Of a DNA stretch of 64,000 nucleotides, positions 6,029 to 54,601 are shown piece by piece. A program made the translations under genes and the position numbers. Source of the DNA: an uncultured Candidatus Sumerlaeota bacterium. Lineage in GTDB: Bacteria; Sumerlaeota; Sumerlaeia; MVZB01; JAJFLK01. The number at the start of each line of letters is the position of its first letter. Position 1 is the first letter of the stretch. The notes under the pieces were generated by a model. It made no database searches and was not told where the DNA came from. It was given only the letters and a program-made list of their open reading frames with translations. Location: assembly GCA_964463045.1 (NCBI GenBank), contig CAYXAU010000007.1, positions 39,916 through 103,915 on the forward strand. Direction: 5' to 3'.

Positions 6029-7939
6029 TCAGGCGGGAGCGGCCGCACGGGCCGATCCCGGCGAGGGGGGCAGCAGAACGGTGAAGATCGAACCTTGGCC
6101 GGGGGCGCTCCGGACCGCGATGCGCCCGCCATGGGCCTCGACGGCCAGCTTGCAGAAGGCAAGCCCCAGGCCGGTGTCAGTCTTGGCGCCGGTGGCGCTC
6201 AACTCGGCCTGGCCAAATTTTTCGAAGATCTTCTTGTGAAACTCGGGCGGGATGCCGTGGCCGTCATCGGCCACCTCGAGCGCGATCTCGCCTTCGGGCG
6301 TCCGGCGGGCGCGCACGGCGATCCGGCCGTCCGGCCGCGTATGCTTGATGGCGTTGCTCACCAGGTTGGTCAGGACGCGCTCCATGAGCCCCACGTCGAC
6401 GTTGATCCGGGCCTCCCCGAGGTCCGGGGCCACGTCCACGACGAGGCTCCGCCCGCCGGCGGCCAGCCCGAGATTCTCGACGACGACCGTCAGCAAGGGG
6501 CCGATCGAGGCGTCATTGCGTTCGAGTTCCAACACCCCGGCTTCGAGCCGCTCGATGTCCAGCAGATTCATGATGATCCACTGCATCCGGTTCGCGTTGC
6601 GTTCGATGAGTTCGGCCGTCTGGCGGGCCCGGGGGTTACCCTCGCCCACGAGCCCGCGCAACATATAGGCCCCGCCCTGAATCGCCATCAGGGGGCTTTT
6701 CAGGTCGTGGACGATCATGTGGGTGAGATCGTTCTTGAGTTTCTCGTTGGCGAGCTGGCGCGTCACGTCGGTGAAGATCCAGAGCCGGCCGATGGCGTCG
6801 CCCGCCGGATCGTAGACCGGACCGACCCGATACCGGATGAGCCGGGGGGGGTCGATGCGTTCGAACTGACCGACTTGCTCGCCCTGAAGATCGGCGTAGG
6901 CTTCTCGGACGGCCCGCAGAAACCCCTCGGGGTCCCGGAAGTTGTGTTTGACCTTCTCCCGGAAGGCCTGCATGTCCCCCCCCTGGATTTCTTCCGGCGG
7001 CGGATAACCGAGCAGATCACAGGCGTGCCGATTGATGCGCTGGATGACGCCGCCGGCGTCGGCGAAGATCAGGCCGACCGGCGAGGATTCGAAGATGGCG
7101 TCCATCGTGGCGCGTCGGGCGGCCAGTTGCCGCTCGAGCCTTTTGGTCTCGGTCACGTCCTGGAAAGTCGCCTGAAAGCCTTGCGGTCGCCCGTCCACGT
7201 CCCGCACGAAGCTGACCGAAGCCCAGAGCGCCAAATCCCCCTTATACGGGCAGAAGGCGCGGATTTCGCGGCCCTCGACCTGGCCGGCTGATTCCAGCTC
7301 GCTCAGGAGGCCTTCGATGTCGGCTTCCGAAACGCCGACCGACCGGAGCCAGGCCGGCAGCGGCTGGCCGATCGTCCGGGCTTCATCCAGCGGCAGACAG
7401 ACGCTGGCCACGTGGTTGACCTCCCGGATCGTCAAATCCGGCGTCCCCATCATGGCCGGGAACGGCAGGTTGCCGAAGAATTGATGATGAAGCTGGGTGG
7501 CCTCCTCGGCCCGGCGTCGCCAATAACTCTCCAGGGCCGCCGTGAATTCGTCGAAGAGCGCCCGCTCGTAAGCGTCGATCATCCCGAAGGCTCGGGCAAG
7601 CTGCTCCGGCTCGCCGCCAAGCTGCTCGACTAACTCCAGCTTCCGGCGCGCCGAGGTCGCGTAAAGGACGCGGGCGTAGGCGTCCAGTCGGATCCCCCCT
7701 TCGGCCGTCCTTCGGCAGATCTCCCGCAGGCGCGGCTGGACGGCCTCGAGGGAACCCGCCTCGGCGTAGGCGTCGAACAGATCGACGTATTCGCCGAGCA
7801 GACTCTCCATCCACGCGCGCCCCTCGGGGTCCATCGCCGGGGCAACTTCGAGGACCTTTTCCATCATCTGGGTCACGCGCGCGCTGCGATCCTTTTCCTT
7901 GAGGCGCTCGACCGGCAGTGAAAACGTCGTCGGAGCCAT
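6029..7939 (-). CDS. Cytoplasmic sensor histidine kinase with tandem PAS domains (orphan, no adjacent response regulator)
   Basis: HisKA H-box (HDLKSPL), HATPase_c N/G boxes (NLVSNAIKHT, DDGHGIP, GTGLGL), and two PAS-like segments upstream. No transmembrane helices are seen. Confidence 0.85.
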   Translation of the reverse strand: MAPTTFSLPVERLKEKDRSARVTQMMEKVLEVAPAMDPEGRAWMESLLGEYVDLFDAYAEAGSLEAVQPRLREICRRTAEGGIRLDAYARVLYATSARRKLELVEQLGGEPEQLARAFGMIDAYERALFDEFTAALESYWRRRAEEATQLHHQFFGNLPFPAMMGTPDLTIREVNHVASVCLPLDEARTIGQPLPAWLRSVGVSEADIEGLLSELESAGQVEGREIRAFCPYKGDLALWASVSFVRDVDGRPQGFQATFQDVTETKRLERQLAARRATMDAIFESSPVGLIFADAGGVIQRINRHACDLLGYPPPEEIQGGDMQAFREKVKHNFRDPEGFLRAVREAYADLQGEQVGQFERIDPPRLIRYRVGPVYDPAGDAIGRLWIFTDVTRQLANEKLKNDLTHMIVHDLKSPLMAIQGGAYMLRGLVGEGNPRARQTAELIERNANRMQWIIMNLLDIERLEAGVLELERNDASIGPLLTVVVENLGLAAGGRSLVVDVAPDLGEARINVDVGLMERVLTNLVSNAIKHTRPDGRIAVRARRTPEGEIALEVADDGHGIPPEFHKKIFEKFGQAELSATGAKTDTGLGLAFCKLAVEAHGGRIAVRSAPGQGSIFTVLLPPSPGSARAAAPA

Positions 7940-18760: not shown

Positions 18761-20503
18761 TTGATTGGCATCCAGGGGGACGGGAGGAGGCGAAGCCTCA
18801 TGCGCTGGAGAGGGTGGTTTTGGGCAGCGGCATTGATCGCGGGGGCGGCGTTCGCCGTTCGGGCGGGGGCGCAACTTCCCGCCGACGCGGTCATGCTCGA
18901 CAAGGTCAAAATCCCGGAAAAGATCAAATCCGAGGACCTCTGTCCGGTCTATCTGGAGCCCTCGGCTCCCGACGGACCGACCTGGGAATACCAGGGGGTT
19001 GGCTATCGCGGAGCGAAGCCCGACGCCAGGGAGAAGTTCTTCCAGGACCCGGACGGTTACGCCGCCAAGCACGCCGAAAAGCGCTACATCGACAATTTCG
19101 TCCAGGCCATGAGCATCATCTGGTGCCCGGTGACCGATGAGGTCAGCCCGGGGGGCTTGGCCGCGTGGACGGCCCTCGGGATCAAGTGGGAAGCCTGCTG
19201 TGAGTTCTGCGAAAGCCAGGTGACGGATCAGGACTTCGAGGGCGCGCTGGACCGGCTCATCGAACGCGCCCGGATCAGCTACCGGCTCACGGGGGGCATA
19301 TACACCGAAGGGGCCTCATCGCCCGTCGAAGGGGCCGTCAAGGGGATCGCCAAGATCGACGGGGAGGGCGCCGCCCCGGCCGCCGCGACCGAGCCGGACG
19401 AACCCGCCTATCTCGCGGGCCGGACGCTCAAGCCGACCTACGCCGAAGGGATCGGGCTGATCTTCGAGAACCGTTGCGTCGAATGTCACCGACCGGGTGG
19501 CCTGGCCCCCATGAGTTTCGCCTCCCTCGGCGAAATCAAAAAATGGACGAAGTCGCTCAAGGAAACCATCGTCAATCGGGCGATGCCCCCCTGGCCGGCC
19601 GAGCCCGGCATCGGACGATTCGCCAACGACCGGAGGCTCACGCGGCAGGAGATCGATCTGCTGGTCCAGTGGATTGAGGCGGGCTATCCCCCGGGGGAGG
19701 GCCAGTATGCCCCCAGCCGGACCGCTGCCGAAGCCTGGACGATCGGCGAGCCTGATCACGTCTTCCAGCTTCCGGAAGCGACAGTCGGCGAGAACGTCGT
19801 CGGCGAGGTTCAGACGTTCAGCCTGGAAACGGCGTGGGATGAGGACCGATGGGTCGTGGCCGCCGAGGTCAGGCTGGGCGACGAATTCACGATCCTGGGG
19901 GTGGAGGCCGGGCCGCTGGGGGCGTTTTATCCGGGGGCGCGCGTCGTGCGCCATCTTCCGGGGACGGGTCGGCTGCTCAAAGCCGGGGAGAAAGTTCCCG
20001 TCCACGTGCATTACCTGAAGGAAGCCGGTTATTCGATCACCGACCCGGGGACCAAGATCGCCGTCCGCTTCGCTGAGGACGCCGCGGCGATCCGCTCGCC
20101 GATTCTGAGCCACCGCATGACTCCGGGAGAGTTCGCCATCCCCGCCGGGGCCGCTGATTTCCAGATCACCGCCCGCTTCGAGTTGCCTCAGGCCAGCCGG
20201 ATCGTCTCGCTGACGCCCATCCTGATGCAACGCGGCAAAAGCGTTCTTTTCCGCGCGATCCTGCCCGACGGCAAGCACCAGCCTCTTCTCTCGATCCCCC
20301 ATTGGGATCCGAACTGGAAACTGCACTATCAGTTGGCCGAGCCACCGGTCCTGCCGGAGGGAGCGGTCATCGAGATGACGGCCGTTTACGACAATTCCAA
20401 GCTCAACGTCCGCAACCCCAACCCCGACGTGGCCGTTTCCTCAGACCCATCAGGGGAATCGGCCGAGGGGTGGATCGACTACGTGCTTGAGCCGGCGGAC
20501 TGA
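18761..20503 (+). CDS. Secreted mono-haem c-type cytochrome domain protein with Cys-rich N-terminal region and beta-rich C-terminal domain
   Basis: Signal peptide. One CxxCH haem motif (CVECH). N-terminal cysteine cluster (CPVY...WCPV...WEACCEFCES). The C-terminal ~300 aa are not assigned. Confidence 0.6.
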   Translation: MIGIQGDGRRRSLMRWRGWFWAAALIAGAAFAVRAGAQLPADAVMLDKVKIPEKIKSEDLCPVYLEPSAPDGPTWEYQGVGYRGAKPDAREKFFQDPDGYAAKHAEKRYIDNFVQAMSIIWCPVTDEVSPGGLAAWTALGIKWEACCEFCESQVTDQDFEGALDRLIERARISYRLTGGIYTEGASSPVEGAVKGIAKIDGEGAAPAAATEPDEPAYLAGRTLKPTYAEGIGLIFENRCVECHRPGGLAPMSFASLGEIKKWTKSLKETIVNRAMPPWPAEPGIGRFANDRRLTRQEIDLLVQWIEAGYPPGEGQYAPSRTAAEAWTIGEPDHVFQLPEATVGENVVGEVQTFSLETAWDEDRWVVAAEVRLGDEFTILGVEAGPLGAFYPGARVVRHLPGTGRLLKAGEKVPVHVHYLKEAGYSITDPGTKIAVRFAEDAAAIRSPILSHRMTPGEFAIPAGAADFQITARFELPQASRIVSLTPILMQRGKSVLFRAILPDGKHQPLLSIPHWDPNWKLHYQLAEPPVLPEGAVIEMTAVYDNSKLNVRNPNPDVAVSSDPSGESAEGWIDYVLEPAD

Positions 20504-38349: not shown

Positions 38350-39852
38350 TCAGTCCCTTGAAGCGTTGGCGTCGGAGGCGTCCGGGATCGAATGCCCGAG
38401 ACGCCGAAGATGAGCCTCCAGCGAGTGCTCGGCCCAGCGCCACATCTCCCGCGGCACGTCGTCATAGGCCGCCGACATCAATTCCTGCCGGGTCCGAGGG
38501 CCGTCGGCCAGGGCGGCCCGGATGCGCTCTTCGCGCCAGAGGCGATGGTCGATGTACTGACGGAGGACGGACGCGGGGTCGTGGAGCGGCGCGCCGTGCG
38601 CCGGAATCATGAGCGTGGCTTCCAGACGGGTCAGCCGCTCCAGACTCCGAAGGTAGTCGGTCATGTCGCCGCCATGGCGGGGTGAGACGACGATGGTGCT
38701 CCCCTGGGCGACCATGTCGCCGCAGATGAGCGTCCTCGAGGTCTCCTCAAAGAAACACAGGTGACCGGGATCGTGGCCGGGGGTGTGCAGGCATCGGAGT
38801 CGCCAATCGGGGCCGCCGGGAACGATCAGGATTTCGTCGTCCTCCAGCAGGCGATCCACGGCGAACCGGACGCGCTCGGCGGTCCGCGCGTGCGCCCAGA
38901 CGGGAGCGCCGAAGACCTGCCGCACGAAATCGGCGGCGCCGACGTGATCGGGATGCGAGTGCGTCAGAAGGACGGCCTCAAGCCGCCCCCCCGCTTCCAA
39001 CAGATGCTCGAGTTGCCGGCGCAAGAGCGCTTGATCGGTTTCGTAAGGCGTCCCGGGGTCGATCAGGAAAATCCGACGCTCGCCGACGGCGATCATGTTG
39101 GTGTGCGTCGCCGGGGGGAGCGTTGGCGTGCGCAGGGGGAAAACGTAGATTCCCGCCCGATATTCGATGCGGCCCGGTTCGGCCGGCTCCAGATGGGTCG
39201 TCCGTCGCAGCGGCGCGAGCGCCGCCGGATAACCGAAGTCGCTTAATTGCTGAAGGGCGTAAGCCACGGGGGCCGGCAGGAGGATGTCCCCCTGACGCCA
39301 GCGCCGACGCGCCTCGGCCGGGTTGATCCAGAGGAGTTCGTCGAGTTCCCCCTCGATGAGCTCTTCGGAACGGGGCCCCAGGTGCCGGTAAAGGAAATAA
39401 CGCGTGTGGAAACGGATCGGGCTCATCCGAGGGGTGATCCAGAGCCCCGCGGGTTCGAACCGTCGGGCGTCAATCCGCAGCGCGTGACGACGGAGAAAGA
39501 CATCGAAGGCCGACTCCTCGCCCAGGACGGCGCGACGCGCCTGCCGCAGAATGTCCGCTGACGGCGCCCGTTCGACGCCAAGCAGCAAGCCCGTCTCCTC
39601 GAACACCTCGCGGACGAGAGCGTGGATCGCCGCCGCCGTCTCGGCGTCCTCCGCCCCGGTGATATGGGCCGCCCCTTCGGCATCGTGAATGCTGCCGCCG
39701 GGAAAGGCGTGATACCCCCCCATGAAGCGGAGCTTGTCGCTGCGCCGGACGAGCAACAGTTCGTCCCGGCGGGCGTCGTCGAGAATAATGGCGGCAGCCG
39801 CCTTGCGGGGTTCAGCCACCCGGGCCCGATCTGAAATCGAGGGCTCGTTCAT
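38350..39852 (-). CDS. Bifunctional NUDIX hydrolase (CoA-pyrophosphatase-type) / MBL-fold (glyoxalase-II-like) hydrolase
   Basis: The N-terminus has the NuCoA motif LLVRRSDKLRFMGGYHAFPGG and the Nudix box REVFEETGL. The C-terminus has the MBL motif LLTHSHPDHVG with downstream GDMV and PAHG. The start is assigned at MNEPS (39852), overlapping the YceD-like stop by 4 nt. Confidence 0.8.
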   Translation of the reverse strand: MNEPSISDRARVAEPRKAAAAIILDDARRDELLLVRRSDKLRFMGGYHAFPGGSIHDAEGAAHITGAEDAETAAAIHALVREVFEETGLLLGVERAPSADILRQARRAVLGEESAFDVFLRRHALRIDARRFEPAGLWITPRMSPIRFHTRYFLYRHLGPRSEELIEGELDELLWINPAEARRRWRQGDILLPAPVAYALQQLSDFGYPAALAPLRRTTHLEPAEPGRIEYRAGIYVFPLRTPTLPPATHTNMIAVGERRIFLIDPGTPYETDQALLRRQLEHLLEAGGRLEAVLLTHSHPDHVGAADFVRQVFGAPVWAHARTAERVRFAVDRLLEDDEILIVPGGPDWRLRCLHTPGHDPGHLCFFEETSRTLICGDMVAQGSTIVVSPRHGGDMTDYLRSLERLTRLEATLMIPAHGAPLHDPASVLRQYIDHRLWREERIRAALADGPRTRQELMSAAYDDVPREMWRWAEHSLEAHLRRLGHSIPDASDANASRD

Positions 39853-40463
39853 GAGGCGGGATGCTCTCCGAACCGGCGGAGGGCGCGCTTCCACTCCGGG
39901 ACGTCGGCGGCCTCGGGCGAGGCCGCGCCTCGGCAGCGACACGTTTCCACGTTGAGGTTGGCGCCGCAGCCCGGACACAAACCTTTGCAATCGGCCCGGC
40001 ACCGCGGGTAATCGGGCAAAGCGGCCATGATCAGCTCTCGCAGCGTTTCCGCCACGTCGAGCTCCTCCCCTTCGTAATAGGAGACGATATCTTCGACGCC
40101 GGCCGGATCGAGCGGCGAGACCTCCCGCTCGGCCGAGCGCCAGAGCCAGACCTCATCGACGGGCACGCGCAACTCCAGACGGACCGGAGCCAGACATCGA
40201 ACGCAGGGAGTCTCCACCGTTACCTTCAGCCCGCCGTGGCCCTGGACGTCACGGCCCACGAGCGCGAACGTGACGGCCCCCGTCACCGCCCCGACGAAGG
40301 CGTAGGCGTCGTCTTTGAGATCGAACCACTCCGGCCGATGGTCCAGAGGGAGGGTCTTCGGACCTTCGCGGAGATGGTCGATCAGGACTTTGAGCGGCTG
40401 AACGGCCATGGCACTGACTGGCCGGGCCGGGCGGCCCGACGACGGGAAGACCTCAACGAACAA
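39849..40463 (-). CDS. DUF177/YceD-family protein
   Basis: C-terminal Cys cluster RCRADCKGLCPGCGANLNVETCRC typical of YceD/DUF177. It lies between mreB and the NUDIX-MBL gene on the same strand. Confidence 0.75.
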   Translation of the reverse strand: MFVEVFPSSGRPARPVSAMAVQPLKVLIDHLREGPKTLPLDHRPEWFDLKDDAYAFVGAVTGAVTFALVGRDVQGHGGLKVTVETPCVRCLAPVRLELRVPVDEVWLWRSAEREVSPLDPAGVEDIVSYYEGEELDVAETLRELIMAALPDYPRCRADCKGLCPGCGANLNVETCRCRGAASPEAADVPEWKRALRRFGEHPAS

Positions 40464-40471
40464 AGGGCGGC

Positions 40472-41491
40472 CTAGTAGCCGACCGATCCGTTGAGGCTCT
40501 TAAAGATTTCGATGGATTCCAGCGATTTGCCCGTGCCGAGCACGATCGCCGTTTCCGGATTGTCGGCCAGGCGGACGTTGAGCCCCGTCTCGGAGCGGAG
40601 CAGCCGATCCAGCCCGCGCAGTTGCGCCCCGCCGCCGGCCAGCACGATGCCGGAATCGACGATATCAGCGGCCAGCTCCGGCGGCGTGCGCTCCAGCGTC
40701 GATTTGACGGCGTTGACGATGGCCATGACCGGCTCGGTGAGAGCCTCCCGGATTTCCTCGCTTGAGATTTCCAGCGTCCGCGGCATCCCGGCGACCATGT
40801 CGCGCCCCTTGATCACCATCTTCGTCTCGTGCGGCAGGCAATCGGCCGAGCCGATCTTGATTTTGATTTCCTCGGCCGTCCGGTCGCCGATCAAGAGATT
40901 ATACTTGCGCTTGATGTGCTGGACGATGGCGTCGTCCATCCGGTCGCCCGCGATCCGCTCGGATTTGCTGACGACGATCCCGCCGAGCGAGATGACGGCC
41001 ATCTCGGTCGTCCCGCCGCCGACGTCGATGATCATCGAGCCGGCGGGCTCGGTCACCGGCAGCCCGGCGCCGATCGCCGCGGCGAACGGCTCCTCGATCA
41101 GATAGACCCGGTGAGCGCCGGCCTGTTGGGCCGATTCCTCAACGGCCCGACGCTCGACCTCGGTAATGCCGGAAGGGACGGCGATCACGACCCGCGGGCG
41201 AACCGTCGGCAGCGTCGGCCGGACGGCCCGCGCCCGGCGCAGAAAGTATGAGATCATCGTCCGCGTGATGCCGAAATCGGCGATGACGCCGTCCTTCATC
41301 GGCCGGATCGCCGTGATGTAAGCCGGTGTCCGCCCCAGCATCCGCTTGGCTTCGGAGCCGACGGCCAGCACCTTGCGCGTCTCGCTGTTGATGGCGACGA
41401 CCGACGGCTCGGAAAGGACGATCCCCTCCCCCCGGACGTAGACAAGCGTCGTCGCCGTCCCCAGGTCGATCCCGATGTCGAGCGTGAACAC
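40472..41491 (-). CDS. mreB: Rod-shape-determining actin homologue MreB
   Basis: [21 protein letters not shown], and AVGSEAK.MLGRTP are the MreB signature. Length is 339 aa. Confidence 0.95.
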
Positions 41492-41726
41492 TCCCGCAGC
41501 CTTGCCTAAAAGCGTTGAGCGGTGATCTCTCCGGCCTGAAACCGTAAGAGCCGCGCTCAGGCTTTCACGTACGCCCTTGAGCGCCCCGAGAAGCTCCGAA
41601 CCTCATCGGACCACATCCCGCGCGGGCTTGTCAATCATGGGCTTGCGCCGGCCCGACGGAGCGTGCGGACCCGGCCGCCGGAGATATCGATTCGAAGCAC
41701 AGGAGACCGGGGGAATCAAAAACTTG

Positions 41727-41792
41727 TTCACAGCAAGTTTCACAGACATTTTCACAGGGTTATCCACAGAATTTTCCACAGGAAATCCACAA
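41727..41792. repeat. Phased array of six DnaA-box-like motifs (T[TC]CACA[GA]) at 12-bp spacing in an AT-rich island
   Basis: Copies start at 41727, 41739, 41751, 41763, 41775 and 41786. They include a perfect TTATCCACA (41761-41769) and TTTTCCACA (41772-41780). All are in the same orientation. The array sits 236-300 bp upstream of the mreB start. Confidence 0.4.
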
Positions 41793-41889
41793 GGCGGGAC
41801 TCCCTCCCACGACGCCTCGCCCGCCTCAAAACCGCCGCTCTCGGCCTTCTACGATGTGAACCCTCGCGCCGGAGATTGATTCCGGACGT

Positions 41890-42738
41890 TCAGAGCCGAC
41901 GCTCGATCCATCGACTGATCCGCTCAATCACCCCCCTCCGGCCCGTCTCGTTCAGAATCTCGTGATACATCTCGGGGAAGGAGATGAACTCCTTATCCGG
42001 CGACCCCAAACGCTCGAAAAAGTCACGCGCCCGACTGGGGTCGGCCACTCGGTCCTCGGCGGCTGACAGAATGAGCGTCGGCAATCGCAATTCGGCGGCC
42101 GCATCGAACGCCGCGGCGATCGCCCGGCTCGTCTCGAAAAACCAACCGGCCGTCGCCGTCCGGAAAACCAGGGGATCCGCGGCGTAGGCCCGCCCGACCT
42201 CGGGATCGTGCGAGAGCTCCTCCGGGCGAATCCCCGAGGCAAACGCCAATGAGGGAAGAACGATCGAGGCGAGGCGCCCCAAAGCCCTTTTCCAGGGCGG
42301 GACGGGCCGAGCCACGCCGAAAAACGGGGAGGACAGAATCAGACCGCGCCAGGGGGGGCTTCGTCGCCATGCATAATCGGCGGCCACCAGACCGCCGAAG
42401 CTGTGCCCCAGAACGAACAGCGGCTCCGAATCGATACGCGCCCCCAGGGCCGCCAGCCAGGCGTCCAGATCGGATCGATAGTCCTCAAACCGGCGCACGT
42501 GACCGCGTGCCCCGCCGGAGCGGCCATGCCCGCGCAGGTCGAGCCCCGCCACGCCCCACCCGCGCGCGTTGAAGTCCGCCGCCGTCAGCCCGTAACGGCC
42601 CGCATGTTCGGCGTAGCCGTGAATGATCGCTATCCAGGCCGCTGGCCGCTCGACCGGCCAGCATCCCCAGGCCAGGCCGAGCCCGTCGGGAACCGTCAGC
42701 CAAGACTCTTCCTCCGATGGGTGGCCCGCGTTCGTCAT
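41890..42738 (-). CDS. Alpha/beta-hydrolase, lysophospholipase/monoacylglycerol-lipase-like
   Basis: HGYAEHAGRY, nucleophile elbow GHSFGG, and a C-terminal Asp/His region (YHEILNE). Confidence 0.75.
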   Translation of the reverse strand: MTNAGHPSEEESWLTVPDGLGLAWGCWPVERPAAWIAIIHGYAEHAGRYGLTAADFNARGWGVAGLDLRGHGRSGGARGHVRRFEDYRSDLDAWLAALGARIDSEPLFVLGHSFGGLVAADYAWRRSPPWRGLILSSPFFGVARPVPPWKRALGRLASIVLPSLAFASGIRPEELSHDPEVGRAYAADPLVFRTATAGWFFETSRAIAAAFDAAAELRLPTLILSAAEDRVADPSRARDFFERLGSPDKEFISFPEMYHEILNETGRRGVIERISRWIERRL

Positions 42739-44561
42739 TGGCGGCTCGGCCCTTCCGCCGCCCCGGCTGGCGCCGATGAGCGGAACCTTCCGCGGCTGAG
42801 CGCGACGAGCCCCGCAAAGGCCCAGAAACCCCAGGCGCCGTAGGAAACCGCGAGCCCGCGCCGGCCCGGCGGCGAATGCTCATACCGCAACTCGGCCAGG
42901 TGCTCGCCGGCGGGGAGCGCCAACTCGATCAGGCCGTCGGCATCCGGGCGGATGGCCTCCGGGGCCCGCCGACCGTCCAGCGCAAACGACCAACCGGGAA
43001 AATAGAACGCGTGGACGCGCGCGCGGGCGGCGGGCGCCGCCTGATATCGCCAACGGTAACGGGTCCCCCGGCGGGAATGCTCGAGCAACGTCAGGCTTCC
43101 CTCGACCAACGTCAGGCGGTGCGGCGGCGCCGGATAAGCCTCCCAGAACGTCGGCGTGACGAGGGCATAATGAGAAGCGACGGGGCGATACTCCCGAATC
43201 ACTGACCCGATGAAACCGTCCAAGGGCCCTTTCGCCTCGGTCCAGACGCCGATCGTCCCTTCCGGATCGGGCAGATCAGCGGGAGGCCCCTCAATGAGCC
43301 CCGTCCTGGCGGGCGGCAGAGAGAGGGCCACGGCCAGGGCCGCCAGAACCAGAGGATGGATCCAGCGGGCGACCACCGGCCCGGCCAGCGCCGTCGCGGC
43401 CGCTCCGAACCAAGCGGTCAGGATTAGAAGTCGCCAGGGAAATTGGATGTAGAGGAAAAGTTCAGGAACTCGCCCCCAAGGCATCCAGCGGGAGACCATC
43501 AGCAGCGATAGCGCGAACAAAGCGAGCAAGACGCCGAGCCGATACCGCGCGGCGCGACCGAGACCGGGCCGAATCAGGGCCACGGCAGCCAGAAGAGCCC
43601 CCGTCATGAGCGCCAGACCCGGATTGACGGCGAAATCCCGCTCCACGCCGCCCAGGCTCAGCCCGCGTCCGTAGGCTTCCATGAAGAATTGAATCGGATA
43701 GAGGGAATGGCCGTGCAGGGCCCGAGCGCCTCCGGTCATCCAGCTCGCGTCCCCGGCATCGACGAGCCCGCGGAGCGCGAGGGCCGGATACCAGAAATAC
43801 GCCGAGAGGGCGAGCCCGAGCAGGGCGCTCCCGGCGACGCTCAGCAGCCAACGGACGGAACTCGCCGTCAGAACGGCGTAGAGCGCGATCAGGATCGTGC
43901 CGAAGAGGGCCAGAGCGTTATGGCTCAGGACGAGGAGCGCATAGGCGGGGGCAACGAGGAGCTGTCGGCCGGCCCCGCCGCCACGGCTCCATTCCAGCGC
44001 CACGAAGGCCCCGCCGAGGGTCGCCCAAGCCCAACATTCGGCCAGGCTCACGCGAACGAACAAATCCGTCAGATGATAGGGATTGAGGCCATAAACGACG
44101 GCGGCGACGAAGGCCCAGGCTCGCGGTCGGGGGGAGCCGTATCGGCGGCCCAAAAGCAGCCCGAAGCCATAGGCCGCGATTCCGCTCAGGACGAAGGCCA
44201 GATAGAAACTCATTCGCGTCGCCGGCCCCGTTCCGCTCCCCAAACCGACGACCATGGTCGCCGCGACGTAATACCCGAGCGGGGCGTAGAACGTGAAAAA
44301 CGGCCAACCGTAGCCATGGGCGACCTGGGGCAACCAGGGGACGTGGAACGGCCCTTGCGCGCGCCAGACCTCGCTCATGGCGGTCACGCGTTCCTGAGGG
44401 GCGTAACCTTCGTGGCCGGTCCAGCCGTATCGCCCGAACGTGGGGGCCAGGTAGATCAGGCATAGGGCAAGGATGAGGGCGGGCCAGCCCGTCGCGCCGA
44501 AGGCTGAGCGGGCGATCCTGCGCCGATCGGGGGGGGATTCGGTTCCAAGATCGGCCTTCAA
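42735..44561 (-). CDS. Polytopic membrane protein, YfhO-like/GT-C-like (paralogue of 8198..10933)
   Basis: More than 10 TM helices. Shares the WPFFTFYAPLGYY / PxWxP motif region with the 911-aa protein. C-terminal soluble domain. It is translationally coupled (4-nt overlaps) to the MFS transporter upstream and the hydrolase downstream. Confidence 0.55.
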   Translation of the reverse strand: MKADLGTESPPDRRRIARSAFGATGWPALILALCLIYLAPTFGRYGWTGHEGYAPQERVTAMSEVWRAQGPFHVPWLPQVAHGYGWPFFTFYAPLGYYVAATMVVGLGSGTGPATRMSFYLAFVLSGIAAYGFGLLLGRRYGSPRPRAWAFVAAVVYGLNPYHLTDLFVRVSLAECWAWATLGGAFVALEWSRGGGAGRQLLVAPAYALLVLSHNALALFGTILIALYAVLTASSVRWLLSVAGSALLGLALSAYFWYPALALRGLVDAGDASWMTGGARALHGHSLYPIQFFMEAYGRGLSLGGVERDFAVNPGLALMTGALLAAVALIRPGLGRAARYRLGVLLALFALSLLMVSRWMPWGRVPELFLYIQFPWRLLILTAWFGAAATALAGPVVARWIHPLVLAALAVALSLPPARTGLIEGPPADLPDPEGTIGVWTEAKGPLDGFIGSVIREYRPVASHYALVTPTFWEAYPAPPHRLTLVEGSLTLLEHSRRGTRYRWRYQAAPAARARVHAFYFPGWSFALDGRRAPEAIRPDADGLIELALPAGEHLAELRYEHSPPGRRGLAVSYGAWGFWAFAGLVALSRGRFRSSAPAGAAEGPSRQ

Positions 44562-46027
44562 GAGACGGTCCGGGCCGTCGAGGGCTTGGGGGCCTGGGCA
44601 TCCTGCCAGACCGTCAGATAGTCCATGCTGCGCTTGAAAGACGGGAGCCCCAGATAAAGCAGGATGGCCGCGAGGAGATGGGCCGTGGTCGCCACCGAGA
44701 AGAGCGAATATCGGAGGGGTCGTTCAAGGCCCAGACCGTCTCGGAAGATGTAGTCGGTCGCCAGGGCGACGGCCGTCGGGCCGATCGCCAGGCCGACGAT
44801 ATTGACCACGAAAAGGTAAAGCGCCGAGGCCTGGCCGCGCATGCGAACCGGCATCATCTCCTGAATCGCCGCCGGCGCGACGCCGAACGGCATGCTCGCC
44901 ATGAACACCGACGGGATGAGGAACACGATGGCCAGCTCGGCCGTCGGCACCAGCGGGTAGAACATGCCGAACGGAGCCCAGATCCAGGAGGCGATAAAGC
45001 CGGAGCGCATTTTGGAGTCCGTGTAACCTCGCTTGGCGAGCCAGTCGGCCAGATAGCCGCCCGCTGCGATGCCGAGCGTGCCGGACACGGCGATGATGGT
45101 CCCGTACCAGATGCCGGCCTGGCGTTGGGTCCACCCGTACTCACGAATGAAGAAGGCGGGGATCCACGCCGAGCTGCCGTAAGCCGAAAACGACAGGAGC
45201 GAGAACCCGAAGTTGTGGCAGAGGATCGTCCGCCCATTGGCCCGGAAGTAGCGCAGGACCTCCCCCACGGGGACTTGGCGCGCGGCCGCCCCGCGGCCGC
45301 TCACGAGGGCGCGCCGGACGGGCTCGGCGAAGGTGTAAAGCAAGGGGACGACAAGCAGGCCGGGCAGGCCGACGATGATGAACACCTTTTGCCAGGCGGG
45401 GATGGTCCCCACCAAAGGAAGCGTCCAATCGGGCCCCTCTTTCACCAGGGCGACGGCCACGCCGCCGACGATCAGCGCGAGGCCGGAGCCGATGTAAATG
45501 CCGGTGCCGTAGACGCTGATGGCGGTGGCGAGCCTCTCGCGGCGGAAATAGTCCGTGATCAGCGAATAGGCCGCCGGGGAAAGCGACGCCTCCCCGACGC
45601 CGACACCGATCCGATAAAGCGCCATCTGGAAATAATTCTTGGCCACGCCGCAGCCGGCGGCCATCAGGCTCCAGGCGGCCAATCCGGCCGCGATCAACGT
45701 TCGCCGGCTCATCACGTCGGCCAGCCAGCCGAGCGGAAAACCGAAGATCGCGTAAAAGACGGCGAACATCGGCCCCATAAGGATGCTCACCTGCCAATCG
45801 TGCTCCAACGAGAGCCCCTGCTTCAGATCGTCGACCAGAAGATTCATGAGCTGGCGGTCGGCGAAGGAAAAAATGTACACCACCATCAAGACGCCCACGA
45901 CGTACCAGGCGTAGAGGAGCGGCGGATAGGGGACCTCGGCTGGAGCCGCCGGCGGCGCTTCGGCCGAGGGGGGTTCTTCGCGACGCTGTTCCGGGGAGAT
46001 CGCCACCATGTTCCTCCCGAGGATCAT
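44558..46027 (-). CDS. Major facilitator superfamily transporter
   Basis: 12 TM helices and the MFS motif A (G.L.DR.GRR). It is first gene of a three-gene minus-strand operon. Confidence 0.8.
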   Translation of the reverse strand: MILGRNMVAISPEQRREEPPSAEAPPAAPAEVPYPPLLYAWYVVGVLMVVYIFSFADRQLMNLLVDDLKQGLSLEHDWQVSILMGPMFAVFYAIFGFPLGWLADVMSRRTLIAAGLAAWSLMAAGCGVAKNYFQMALYRIGVGVGEASLSPAAYSLITDYFRRERLATAISVYGTGIYIGSGLALIVGGVAVALVKEGPDWTLPLVGTIPAWQKVFIIVGLPGLLVVPLLYTFAEPVRRALVSGRGAAARQVPVGEVLRYFRANGRTILCHNFGFSLLSFSAYGSSAWIPAFFIREYGWTQRQAGIWYGTIIAVSGTLGIAAGGYLADWLAKRGYTDSKMRSGFIASWIWAPFGMFYPLVPTAELAIVFLIPSVFMASMPFGVAPAAIQEMMPVRMRGQASALYLFVVNIVGLAIGPTAVALATDYIFRDGLGLERPLRYSLFSVATTAHLLAAILLYLGLPSFKRSMDYLTVWQDAQAPKPSTARTVS

Positions 46028-52815: not shown

Positions 52816-53844
52816 TCACTCCTCGACAGTCTTGAGCTCGAAGGCGTTCAGGAAGAAGCCAAGATCGCGCGGATCGTCGAGCCCGGCCTCGAGCTTGGGG
52901 TTCCAGATCGCCTCAAGTTCGAAGCGGAACAGATAAATCCCGCCGTCAAGAACGCGAGGCAGGGCAACATCGATGGTCGCGTGCTCGAACGGCTCGACCG
53001 TGAAGCGCGTCTGTTGAGCCCCAGCAGGGCCCGCGATCGTCAGCCGCACCACGCGAGATGCAATGGCCTGGGGCAGAAACCCATGCAACCGGAGCCCACT
53101 GTAGCGTTGATGCTCCGGTAGAGGGAGTTCGATCTCAAAGACCCGCTCCGTCCATCGATAATCGGCCGACGGAGGTCCTTCGGCCCGGAAAAACCCCGAC
53201 CGAAGGAAGTGTTGATCCCCAGCTGCCCCAACGTCGAGGAACAACGAGCCGAGCACGGCCAGGCTCAGCCGCTCCGCGTTCGCCGGCTGAGCGCTGACCC
53301 ACACCACGGCCACTCGAGGTCCGGCCTCCCAATCTTGCCCCGGAGAGGGGACGTAACGTGAGGGCAACCGGAGGGTCACGCCGGCCTCGTCCCGGCCTGG
53401 GGGCGCAAGAGCGCCCAGCAGCCTCTCGCCGGACCGCGCGGGAGCCCGAAGCGTCGGTCCGCCCGCCACGGCGTACTCGATGACTTCTCCCTCGGCCGGC
53501 TCAGACAGGTGAAGCCCCAGGAAGATGACGGTATATCGCGATCGCATGGCTTCGGGGAGGGGAAGGGCGATCGTCTGATCCTCGGCCGCCAGGCGGAGGC
53601 CCCGCTGAACGGGATGCGTGGGATGCGGCCATCCGGGCGGATGGACGAGCGGCCTCAGGGCCGGACCATCCCAAAGGCGGGGAGTCGGTTCTGGCATCAG
53701 CCGGAGAGGCTCCTCAGCGGGCGCAACAAGCGGGAGGAGACCCAGGGCCGAAAATGTGGCCCGCATCGTCAGGTCCTTCCGAAGCGAGCGCCGTCGGGGG
53801 TGCATGACAGAGGCACTTTGGGGCGGGGCGACAGCCACTGTCAA
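52816..53844 (-). CDS. Hypothetical secreted protein
   Basis: Probable start at MRATFSALGLLPLVAPA (signal peptide). No recognisable domain. It is located upstream of the SBP on the same strand. Confidence 0.4.
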   Translation of the reverse strand: MTVAVAPPQSASVMHPRRRSLRKDLTMRATFSALGLLPLVAPAEEPLRLMPEPTPRLWDGPALRPLVHPPGWPHPTHPVQRGLRLAAEDQTIALPLPEAMRSRYTVIFLGLHLSEPAEGEVIEYAVAGGPTLRAPARSGERLLGALAPPGRDEAGVTLRLPSRYVPSPGQDWEAGPRVAVVWVSAQPANAERLSLAVLGSLFLDVGAAGDQHFLRSGFFRAEGPPSADYRWTERVFEIELPLPEHQRYSGLRLHGFLPQAIASRVVRLTIAGPAGAQQTRFTVEPFEHATIDVALPRVLDGGIYLFRFELEAIWNPKLEAGLDDPRDLGFFLNAFELKTVEE

Positions 53845-53925
53845 TACGCCTTCAGCAGGGGGGGAGAAGCCTCACCCAATGAGATCGGCCATAGAAGTCT
53901 GGAACCAATTTGAGACTCAGTTTTC

Positions 53926-53938
53926 GTAAATGATATGG
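53926..53938 (+). promoter_or_regulatory. AT-rich Fur-box-like element in the divergent promoter region upstream of the Fur-family gene
   Basis: GTAAATGATATGG resembles half of the GATAATGATAATCATTATC Fur-box consensus. It lies in a locally AT-rich 160-bp divergent intergenic region. Confidence 0.2.
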
Positions 53939-54004
53939 GGTCCAACGAAAGCGCTTGCGAACGGGTCCGTTGGCGCGTAACCTTGAAACAGAGGCGTTTA
54001 GGCC

Positions 54005-54601
54005 ATGTTGGAAGAAGAGCAAAACTCAGGAACCCAGACGGCTGAGTCGCGTCGACTTGGGATTCAGGGCTTCGCCCAGTTTCTAAAGCGTTTTGGCTAT
54101 TTTCTGAAACTGCGAGGTCTAAGCCTGACCAGAGAACGCCAGCAGATCCTGGAGAAGATTTGCGACCTTTCCGGGCGGTTTACGGTTGATGACCTGTTCT
54201 TCGCCCTTCATGCCGCCGGCAGACGCATCAGCAAAGCCACCATCTACCGCACCGTCCAGTTGCTCCTGGAATGCCGGATCATCCGCGAGACGCCTCTGGG
54301 GGCGCGCCAGGGGGTCTACGAGCTGGCCGACGCCGGCCATTATCATGGCCACATGGTCTGCCAGCACTGTCACCGGCTGATCGAGTTTGGCGGGCCGACG
54401 CTGGAACGATTCGTCCACGAGGCCTCCGTCAGTCACCAGTTCCTGCCGCTCTCGGCGCAGATCAAATTCCTCGGCTTCTGCAACGAGTGCGTCAAGGCCA
54501 ATCCCCCGGCCCTGCGAGAACAAACCTGCGTCCCGTTCCTCAAGTACGCCCAAAGCCGTGAGGGAGCCGAACCCAAACCCGCCGAGGCGCCGGAGAATTG
54601 A
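54005..54601 (+). CDS. Fur-family metalloregulator (Fur/Zur/PerR type)
   Basis: N-terminal wHTH (LTRERQQILEKIC.....FTVDDL.......ISKATIYRTVQLL). Metal sites HYHGHMVCQHCHR and CNEC (structural Zn CxxC...CxxC). Confidence 0.85.
   Translation: MLEEEQNSGTQTAESRRLGIQGFAQFLKRFGYFLKLRGLSLTRERQQILEKICDLSGRFTVDDLFFALHAAGRRISKATIYRTVQLLLECRIIRETPLGARQGVYELADAGHYHGHMVCQHCHRLIEFGGPTLERFVHEASVSHQFLPLSAQIKFLGFCNECVKANPPALREQTCVPFLKYAQSREGAEPKPAEAPEN

Follow-up and report, generated by a model that had tools for sequence, protein, structure and literature searches.

The DNA analysed here, referred to as the window, is a stretch of 64,000 nucleotides (64 kb; contig CAYXAU010000007.1, positions 39,916 to 103,915) from an uncultured Candidatus Sumerlaeota bacterium, with a GC content of ~67%. 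Some of the searches also covered a further 10 kb of the same genome past the right end of the window, and '74 kb' below stands for the two together. A co-directional block of three genes, coding for an MFS protein, a PTPS-related membrane protein and an alpha/beta hydrolase, is followed by mreB and a yceD-family gene (Table 1). Between the hydrolase gene and mreB there is a non-coding gap of 398 bp, and this gap holds six closely spaced, same-orientation motifs that resemble the DnaA box (consensus TTWTNCACA). A first-pass annotation, made from the letters of the DNA alone, proposed that this array is either a candidate chromosomal origin (oriC) or a DnaA-regulated site.

On the forward strand the motif T[TC]CACA[GA] occurs six times, at positions 41727, 41739, 41751, 41763, 41775 and 41786, with steps of 12, 12, 12, 12 and 11 bp, just as the first-pass annotation had described. 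Seen from the mreB-sense (reverse) strand, the six units read CTGTG[G/A]A. Elsewhere in the window the motif is present only as nine scattered singletons. Such clustering is far beyond chance: when the window was simulated 500 times with a first-order Markov model, same-strand clusters within 70 bp reached a maximum of one motif in 470 runs, two in 29 runs and three in a single run, compared with six in the array. When the units are read as 9-mers, boxes 1 to 6 have 1, 2, 1, 0, 0 and 2 mismatches to TTWTNCACA and are separated by gaps of 3, 3, 3, 3 and 2 bp. The two best boxes, previously called perfect or near-perfect, are both perfect (TTATCCACA at 41760 and TTTTCCACA at 41772). They are also the only perfect boxes in the window (0.34 expected), and none was found in the additional 10 kb. 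The array is thus unique in 74 kb. The AT-rich island noted earlier is real as well (57–63% AT in 30-bp windows, including the richest 40-mer of the window with 68% AT), but it is nothing other than the array itself. Tandem Repeats Finder (TRF) picks up the array too, listing a tandem repeat of 12 bp with 75–84% matches. One part of the initial description, that the motifs are spaced by about one helical turn, has to be corrected. With 12-bp steps the sites rotate 5.62 turns across the 59-bp span and are therefore not aligned along a single face of the DNA.

The non-coding nature of the gap, also part of the initial description, is confirmed by gene calls and by GC content at third codon positions (GC3). 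Two forward-strand open reading frames (ORFs) run across the array, both with a GC3 of 0.62–0.63, as against 0.78–0.88 in real genes, and without any Pfam match. With codon-position GC values of this kind, neither ORF passes for a gene; the possibility of a coding repeat was therefore ruled out, and we treat the array as non-coding. The window was also scanned for Rfam families and tRNAs, with no match, and the array is not a known RNA gene. The promoter and terminator scan revealed no consensus sigma-70 promoter and no terminator between the hydrolase gene and the array, and folding of the spacer between them produced no significant RNA structure (z = +0.84). The imperfect direct repeat that had been seen on both sides of the array does exist (41664-41685 and 41855-41876, 77% over 22 nt). 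However, it constitutes weak evidence, since its core octamer, GCCGGAGA, is present 19 times in the window. For the same reason, the idea that the repeat represents a target-site duplication or the boundary of a miniature inverted-repeat transposable element (MITE) is unsupported.

Are the six motifs DnaA boxes? Their conservation pattern points in this direction. The T in position 4 and the CACA in positions 6 to 9 are invariant in all six units, the sole variable column of the core coincides with the N of the consensus, and the spacer columns have drifted. Mismatches affect 5 of the 42 cells in consensus-fixed columns and 10 of the 23 cells in free columns (Fisher p=0.006, a modest test). 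The spacing points the same way. In E. coli, chromatin immunoprecipitation followed by sequencing showed that paired boxes support DnaA binding only with 2 or 3 bp between them, that one extra bp largely abolishes it, and that one of the bound pairs, at purH, consists of a 7/9 box and a perfect box (PMC11317965). The search rules for the basal unwinding system (BUS) likewise ask for tandem boxes not more than 3 bp apart (PMC8287927). All gaps in the array fit the 2-or-3-bp rule, and the boxes are of the same orientation, of which at least two are required. The third line of evidence comes from a metagenome scan for the periodic motif. The matches listed include many coding repeats along with a class of 12-bp (G/T)TTATCCACAG arrays; they include no other loci of this organism. 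One match, L089, resembled the array but was discarded, as it lies inside an ORF of 936 aa. One of the 12-bp (G/T)TTATCCACAG arrays lies in the dnaA-dnaN spacer of locus L167 and others are located next to phage genes; isolated phages carry such arrays too, and box 4 of the window together with its flanks (GGTTATCCACAG) is identical to the 12-bp unit of the metagenomic DnaA-box arrays. Because the same unit recurs in the L167 spacer and in phages, the 12-bp period and the trailing G are typical of DnaA-box arrays. Judging by conservation pattern, spacing and the 12-bp unit found elsewhere, the six motifs are probably DnaA boxes.

To place the array in a genomic context we compared the locus with nine related Sumerlaeota mreB loci, whose MreB proteins are 82–88% identical to that of the window. 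Those MreB homologues that carry a source name are annotated as Sumerlaeota or Sumerlaeia. The mreB-yceD pair is kept in all nine loci. In six of them mreB is preceded by a divergent Pyr_redox_2 (trxB-like) gene and in the other three by an unrelated gene (T2SSE ATPase gene in two cases, clpS) or by the contig end. The window instead has the MFS/PTPS-related/hydrolase block, which is absent from this position in the relatives; outside this species the hydrolase has no ortholog above 49% identity. As the upstream neighbors of mreB differ from those in the relatives, the array can be placed at a lineage-specific junction, or synteny breakpoint. This suggests that the upstream block is a lineage-specific acquisition or rearrangement ending at the array. 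The genome-contig scan yielded MreB matches of at most 67% identity, all from other phyla; these were of no use for synteny but provided a negative control for a link between DnaA boxes and mreB.

A promoter block, TTGACA-N15-TGTCACGCTCAG, is common to seven of the nine related mreB loci and has a variant in L212. In the relatives this block extends to TTGACA-N15-TGTCACGCTCAG(A)GTCCGAT, with an atypical -10 region. In the window, TTGACA (41634-41629, reverse strand) and GTCCGAT are kept and the CACGCTCAGA part is lost, the -10 part not being conserved. Since CACGCTCAGA is missing, the mreB promoter of the window may have been remodelled. The mreB gene itself also shows a small difference: its longest ORF has a GTG start, and its N-terminus is 6–10 residues shorter than in the closest relatives (345–349 aa). 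In one database copy of the same MreB, position 1 is given as M and not V. This organism has been assembled from at least four datasets that are at least 99.9% identical (loci L215, L216, L081 and L082 come from these assemblies), with four differences in 21 kb between the window and L215. Such near-identity makes the comparison of strains uninformative for constraint. The window corresponds to ~62.5-126.5 kb, reversed, of ENA ERZ27245685 k141_1508616 (215,681 bp; L215, L216), which places the array at ~84.7 kb of that contig.

Table 1. Features of the mreB locus and of the DnaA-box-like array. Positions refer to the window unless preceded by a locus label (L083 to L212, mreB loci of relatives).
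Feature	Position	Strand	Remarks
Whole array	41724..41792	+	Six same-orientation DnaA-box-like 9-mers, G or A after each
Box 1, TTGTTCACA	41724..41732	+	One mismatch; closest to mreB
Box 2, AGTTTCACA	41736..41744	+	Two mismatches; weak site
Box 3, ATTTTCACA	41748..41756	+	One mismatch
Box 4, TTATCCACA	41760..41768	+	Perfect, highest-affinity type; with flanks, GGTTATCCACAG
Box 5, TTTTCCACA	41772..41780	+	Perfect; 3 bp from box 4
Box 6, AAATCCACA	41783..41791	+	Two mismatches; 2 bp from box 5; closest to hydrolase gene
GC-rich flank	41793..41860	+	60–73% GC (30-bp windows); side where the DNA unwinding element and DnaA-trios are required; has neither
Imperfect direct repeat flanking the array	left 41664..41694, right 41855-41885	+	Weak; possibly chance
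TTGACA, -35-like hexamer	41629..41634	-	90 bp downstream of array in mreB sense; assignment tentative
mreB promoter block	41598-41634; L083:4870-4915, L086:3870-3915, L088:3130-3180, L209:405-450, L210:2895-2935, L212:2440-2475	- (window)	
mreB	40472..41491	-	339 aa; first gene downstream of array
yceD-family gene	39849..40409	-	Always paired with mreB in Sumerlaeota relatives
Alpha/beta hydrolase gene (Hydrolase_4)	41890..42738	-	Last gene of co-directional upstream block
PTPS-related membrane protein gene	42735-44561	-	Upstream block, before hydrolase gene
MFS gene	44558-46027	-	Start of upstream block

The interpretation we favor, and hold to be somewhat more probable than its negation, is that the array is a non-origin DnaA-box cluster which modulates transcription into mreB-yceD, buffers DnaA, or does both. 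Boxes 4 and 5, two perfect boxes 3 bp apart, make up an ideal double box, from which we infer the nucleation site: DnaA would load there first. DnaA-ATP would then spread cooperatively to the four weaker boxes across the permitted 2–3-bp gaps, and the outcome would be a one-directional DnaA oligomer of ~70 bp spiralling round the DNA. With a 12-bp period and 5.62 turns, bound proteins would wind round the helix, and hence an oligomer fits better than a flat row of activator dimers. The array is intergenic and adjoins a transcription unit, as expected for a regulatory site. More specifically, it lies between a co-directional operon that lacks a recognisable terminator and mreB-yceD, 90 bp upstream of the -35-like hexamer, and from this location an effect on mreB transcription can be predicted. 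The most likely effect would therefore be a DnaA-dependent modulation of transcription reaching or starting at mreB-yceD, with DnaA either blocking read-through or repressing or activating transcription from an upstream position. That DnaA can obstruct elongating RNA polymerase in the manner of a roadblock has been described (PMC11317965), and for intergenic DnaA-box clusters both repression and activation are documented (PMC3245932, PMC2533591). As a secondary effect, a few DnaA molecules could be held away from the origin. DnaA binding, its cooperative spreading and the transcriptional effect are all things that we infer from the sequence of the site. A more specific proposal is that a six-box DnaA-ATP-sensing array, situated between an acquired operon and mreB-yceD, gates the expression of the elongation actin by initiation potential, for example if bound DnaA stopped read-through transcription in one orientation of the array and not in the other. 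We regard this proposal as rather speculative and do not expect it to be correct. Our literature search for a regulatory link between DnaA and mreB returned unrelated mentions only, and the search for Sumerlaea together with dnaA found nothing.

A number of observations weigh against a DnaA-box cluster acting on mreB. Only two of the boxes are canonical, all six having been scored against the consensus TTWTNCACA. Given the TNCACA core and an AT-rich 5' flank, we estimate that at least two perfect 9-mers would arise among six by chance in ~9% of cases, which leaves room for a different protein reading CTGTG[G/A]A. In B. subtilis, stably bound sites were defined by an index A, combining box density and affinity, of more than 0.3 (PMC2533591). 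If box 3, ATTTTCACA, counts as a box, the array would reach an A of ~1.0, which lies above this cut-off and would speak for a bound site. The strict rule used for B. subtilis (at most one mismatch to TTATNCACA) leaves the array with three boxes only, and for this reason the index is not formally computable. Furthermore, the array is 90–160 bp upstream of the putative -35 element, which is far for simple promoter occlusion. Comparison with other genomes does not help either. None of the nine related Sumerlaeota loci has DnaA boxes upstream of mreB, and mreB loci of other phyla (80 regions of 400 bp upstream) contain only three perfect boxes. Judging by these two results, DnaA boxes are not generally associated with mreB. 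Finally, the closest relative has an MreB identity of 88% and the available assemblies of this organism are nearly identical, so that selection on the array is not demonstrable.

Comparison with known systems puts these observations in perspective. The double DnaA boxes of E. coli (purH, nrdAB, dnaA) have the same orientation and lie 2 or 3 bp apart, combine one perfect box with a degenerate neighbor, and are intergenic and promoter-associated, all of which also applies to the array; at these sites DnaA is a repressor, an activator or a roadblock (PMC11317965). In contrast to the E. coli sites, the array has six consecutive boxes instead of a pair and is situated further upstream (90–160 bp from the -35-like hexamer), while its putative target, mreB, is outside the described E. 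coli regulon. The intergenic clusters of B. subtilis, too, comprise several mostly imperfect boxes. Binding of DnaA to those clusters is stable; it affects neighboring genes in both directions and holds back initiation, and candidate clusters are found upstream of different genes in different Bacillus species (PMC3245932, PMC2533591). The B. subtilis clusters differ in that they are not strictly phased one-way arrays and are mostly near oriC, and only three to four boxes of the array conform to the B. subtilis box definition. The lineage-specific position of the array fits non-origin clusters of the Bacillus type, and, by this analogy, it is no argument against a DnaA-box cluster that the position is not conserved. 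The half-arrays of oriC (R1/R5M/tau2/I1/I2 and R4/C1/I3/C2/C3 in E. coli, and the tandem boxes of BUS) share with the array a strong box followed by one-directional weaker boxes with gaps of 2–3 bp (PMC8287927, PMC11317965). Unlike them, the array has no unwinding element, DnaA-trios, opposing half-array or origin-linked genes. It thus resembles a loading platform without the melting part. The E. coli datA locus needs an IHF site among boxes that are dispersed and five in number, and a DARS core consists of three boxes not all facing the same way, whereas all six boxes of the array have one orientation. What datA, DARS1 and DARS2 have in common with the array is that they are non-coding DnaA-box clusters; datA and the DARS loci alter DnaA availability rather than starting replication (PMC3245932; see also PMC4585315).

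The likeness to oriC half-arrays raises the question of whether this Sumerlaeota genome could have its chromosomal oriC here, separate from dnaA. The array is dense, runs in one direction and is located in a 398-bp non-coding gap, with the sole perfect boxes in 74 kb and the most AT-rich 40-mer of the window inside it. In addition, the curve of cumulative GC skew dips slightly to a local minimum near 43 kb, and origins separated from dnaA do exist, the oriC of E. coli being 42 kb away from dnaA (PMC3245932). A positive control for such a comparison is provided by L167 (GC content of the locus, 0.62), in which the dnaA-dnaN spacer (L167:727-1232) is a textbook origin. Its 506 bp contain 17 boxes with at most one mismatch, in both orientations and including 12-bp tandem runs. 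The spacer ends with tandem boxes, a short GC spacer and a 61-bp trio tract with 75% AT (CTATCCACATATCCACAG-CCC-TTATTATTATTAATAATCTAATAG), and this tract lies 3' of the TTATCCACA strand. The DNA unwinding element (DUE) of E. coli oriC is likewise 3' of the TTATCCACA strand. Measured against this control, the array has just six boxes in a single orientation, and its AT-richness is confined to the boxes, both flanks being GC-rich. On the 3' side of the TTATCCACA strand, which holds the DUE in L167, the window reads GGCGGGACTCCCTCCCACGACGCC (~27% AT), and the flank at 41790-41850 as a whole has 27–30% AT. Under the BUS rule, at least three DnaA-trios (NAN repeats) are located within 0–16 bp of a box (PMC8287927). 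The sequence after box 6 (GGCGGGACTCCCTCCC) and its complement (GGGAGGGAGTCCCGCC) both lack three in-phase NAN repeats, and as no such trios were found within 16 bp of the boxes, the array does not qualify as a BUS. Gene content agrees with this result. No dnaA or dnaN is present in the window, as already stated by the first-pass annotation, or in the additional 10 kb, and parAB, gidAB and rpmH/rnpA are likewise absent from the 74 kb; most genes on the right-hand side are transcribed towards the array. Within the window no switch of the GC skew is detectable at the array, and the minimum lies at ~56 kb. The GC3 skew is dominated by the coding strand, with residual replication components of the same small sign on the two sides of the array (+0.008 and +0.011), a signal too weak over 64 kb to carry much weight. 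The nine related genomes, as mentioned, have no boxes upstream of mreB. We consider it very improbable that the array is oriC, and a dnaA-unlinked origin devoid of a recognisable unwinding element would be similarly far-fetched. Therefore, of the two options in the first-pass annotation, the candidate oriC could not be upheld for want of a DUE, trios, origin genes and boxes in relatives, whereas the DnaA-box reading agrees with the consensus columns and the 2–3-bp gaps. A DnaA-regulated or titrating site appears to be the best remaining reading.

Two further explanations do without a role for DnaA in regulation. The invariant part of the units is just TNCACA(G), and six tandem copies of CTGTG[A/G]A with a conserved core, followed downstream by a promoter-like element, might be an operator for some other direct-repeat-binding protein, such as a winged-helix response regulator of the OmpR/PhoB type. 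The likeness to DnaA boxes would then be coincidental. The pho box of E. coli consists of CTGTCAT plus four AT-rich bp, and B. subtilis PhoP sites read TT(A/T/C)ACA. Three units of the array read TTCACA and box 1 reads GTTCAC, similar to the GTTCAY core of the repeat units in Streptomyces PhoP operators (PHO boxes), which have up to six tandem units, the weak ones being filled cooperatively from the conserved core (PMC2275107). However, the period of the array is 12, 12, 12, 12 and 11 bp and not 11 nt, and in S. coelicolor the removal of 1 nt from the 11-nt unit drastically cuts PhoP binding (PMC2275107). A period of 12 bp is what a 9-mer and a gap of 3 bp add up to, and DnaA prefers this spacing (PMC11317965). 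The variable T/C position of the core is T in PhoP-type sites but N in the DnaA box, and the two best units are perfect DnaA 9-mers with the trailing G typical of DnaA arrays. Nor is the array at the -35 position, as PHO boxes are; it is 90 bp from the -35-like hexamer. There is no regulator gene within ~12 kb, the nearest regulator-type genes of the window (histidine kinase, 6029-7939; Fur family, 54005-54601) both being distant, and no response regulator, pst or pho genes are present in the window. Among the metagenome matches listed there is also no non-coding TTCACAG-type array with a recognisable regulon context. An operator of this kind thus seems to us unlikely. We also find it doubtful that the array has no function and is merely a 12-bp tandem repeat in decay, left where a rearrangement or insertion took place and possibly derived from a DnaA-box array of a mobile element or phage. 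In favor of this reading, the array is unique to this species and lies at a synteny breakpoint, next to a hydrolase without an ortholog above 49% identity elsewhere and between weak flanking direct repeats. Phage-like and insertion sequence (IS)-like contexts commonly contain near-perfect 12-bp arrays of this type, TRF sees a tandem repeat here (12 bp, 75–84% matches), and there is no comparative evidence of constraint. Against simple decay, divergence is concentrated in the spacer and the consensus-free columns, with five core columns invariant (p=0.006, modest), and the neighboring genes bear no mobile-element signatures. Moreover, DnaA would be expected to bind a perfect double box in vivo even if the array were a mere leftover of the junction (PMC11317965), so that an array not under selection need not be inert.

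Several observations were made alongside the main analysis. The spacer in front of the Fur-family regulator gene (54005-54601, forward strand) is among the most AT-rich of the window, with 40-mers of 60–65% AT at 53898 and 54084 (region 53845-54601), and may be an auto-regulated promoter. Two ORFs of the window, 18761-20503 (forward strand, 580 aa) and 52816-53844 (reverse strand, 342 aa), have no Pfam match; genes were called with a screen for codon-position GC, and of the two only the 580-aa ORF (GC3 0.82) came through it. The near-perfect 12-bp (G/T)TTATCCACAG arrays are common in phage-like contigs (L122, L107, L131, L153, L094, L156 and L148), with neighbors coding for terminase, exonuclease and PAPS reductase; one array lies between IS-like helix-turn-helix genes. 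Such arrays are also present, unannotated, in isolated phages, namely Escherichia phage P483, Shigella phage VB_Ship_A7, Arthrobacter phages Tiff81 and Seahorse, and microviruses (one of the isolated-phage array loci, L213, corresponds to KP090453.1 36915-37770). The phage arrays may be phage origins or DnaA decoys. Finally, a 49-kb contig with a GC content of 0.41 carries AAATTTTCACAG, ACATTTTCACAG and ACATTTTCCAG in succession (L155:9903-9945). Here ACATTTTCACAG equals unit 3 of the window, which is either a coincidence or a sign of a related element; the contig has no ORF of at least 90 aa within ~500 bp of this repeat.

Overall, the array is plausibly a site for regulation or titration, specific to this lineage but of a known kind. 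It is not a new type of origin, which makes its value modest. The unannotated 12-bp DnaA-box arrays of phages may be of wider interest than the window itself. If DnaA does bind the proposed cluster, it would represent an unusually clean natural case of a strong double box nucleating a one-way run of weak boxes outside an origin, and it would lend itself to studies of how DnaA oligomers grow on duplex DNA without unwinding it. If the gating of mreB were also true, it would constitute a direct link from DnaA to cell shape, one that is undescribed in model bacteria. To our knowledge, Sumerlaeota (BRC1) have no cultured model. Should DnaA indeed occupy the array, there would for the first time be an indication of how this phylum connects the initiation of replication with other functions of the cell cycle.

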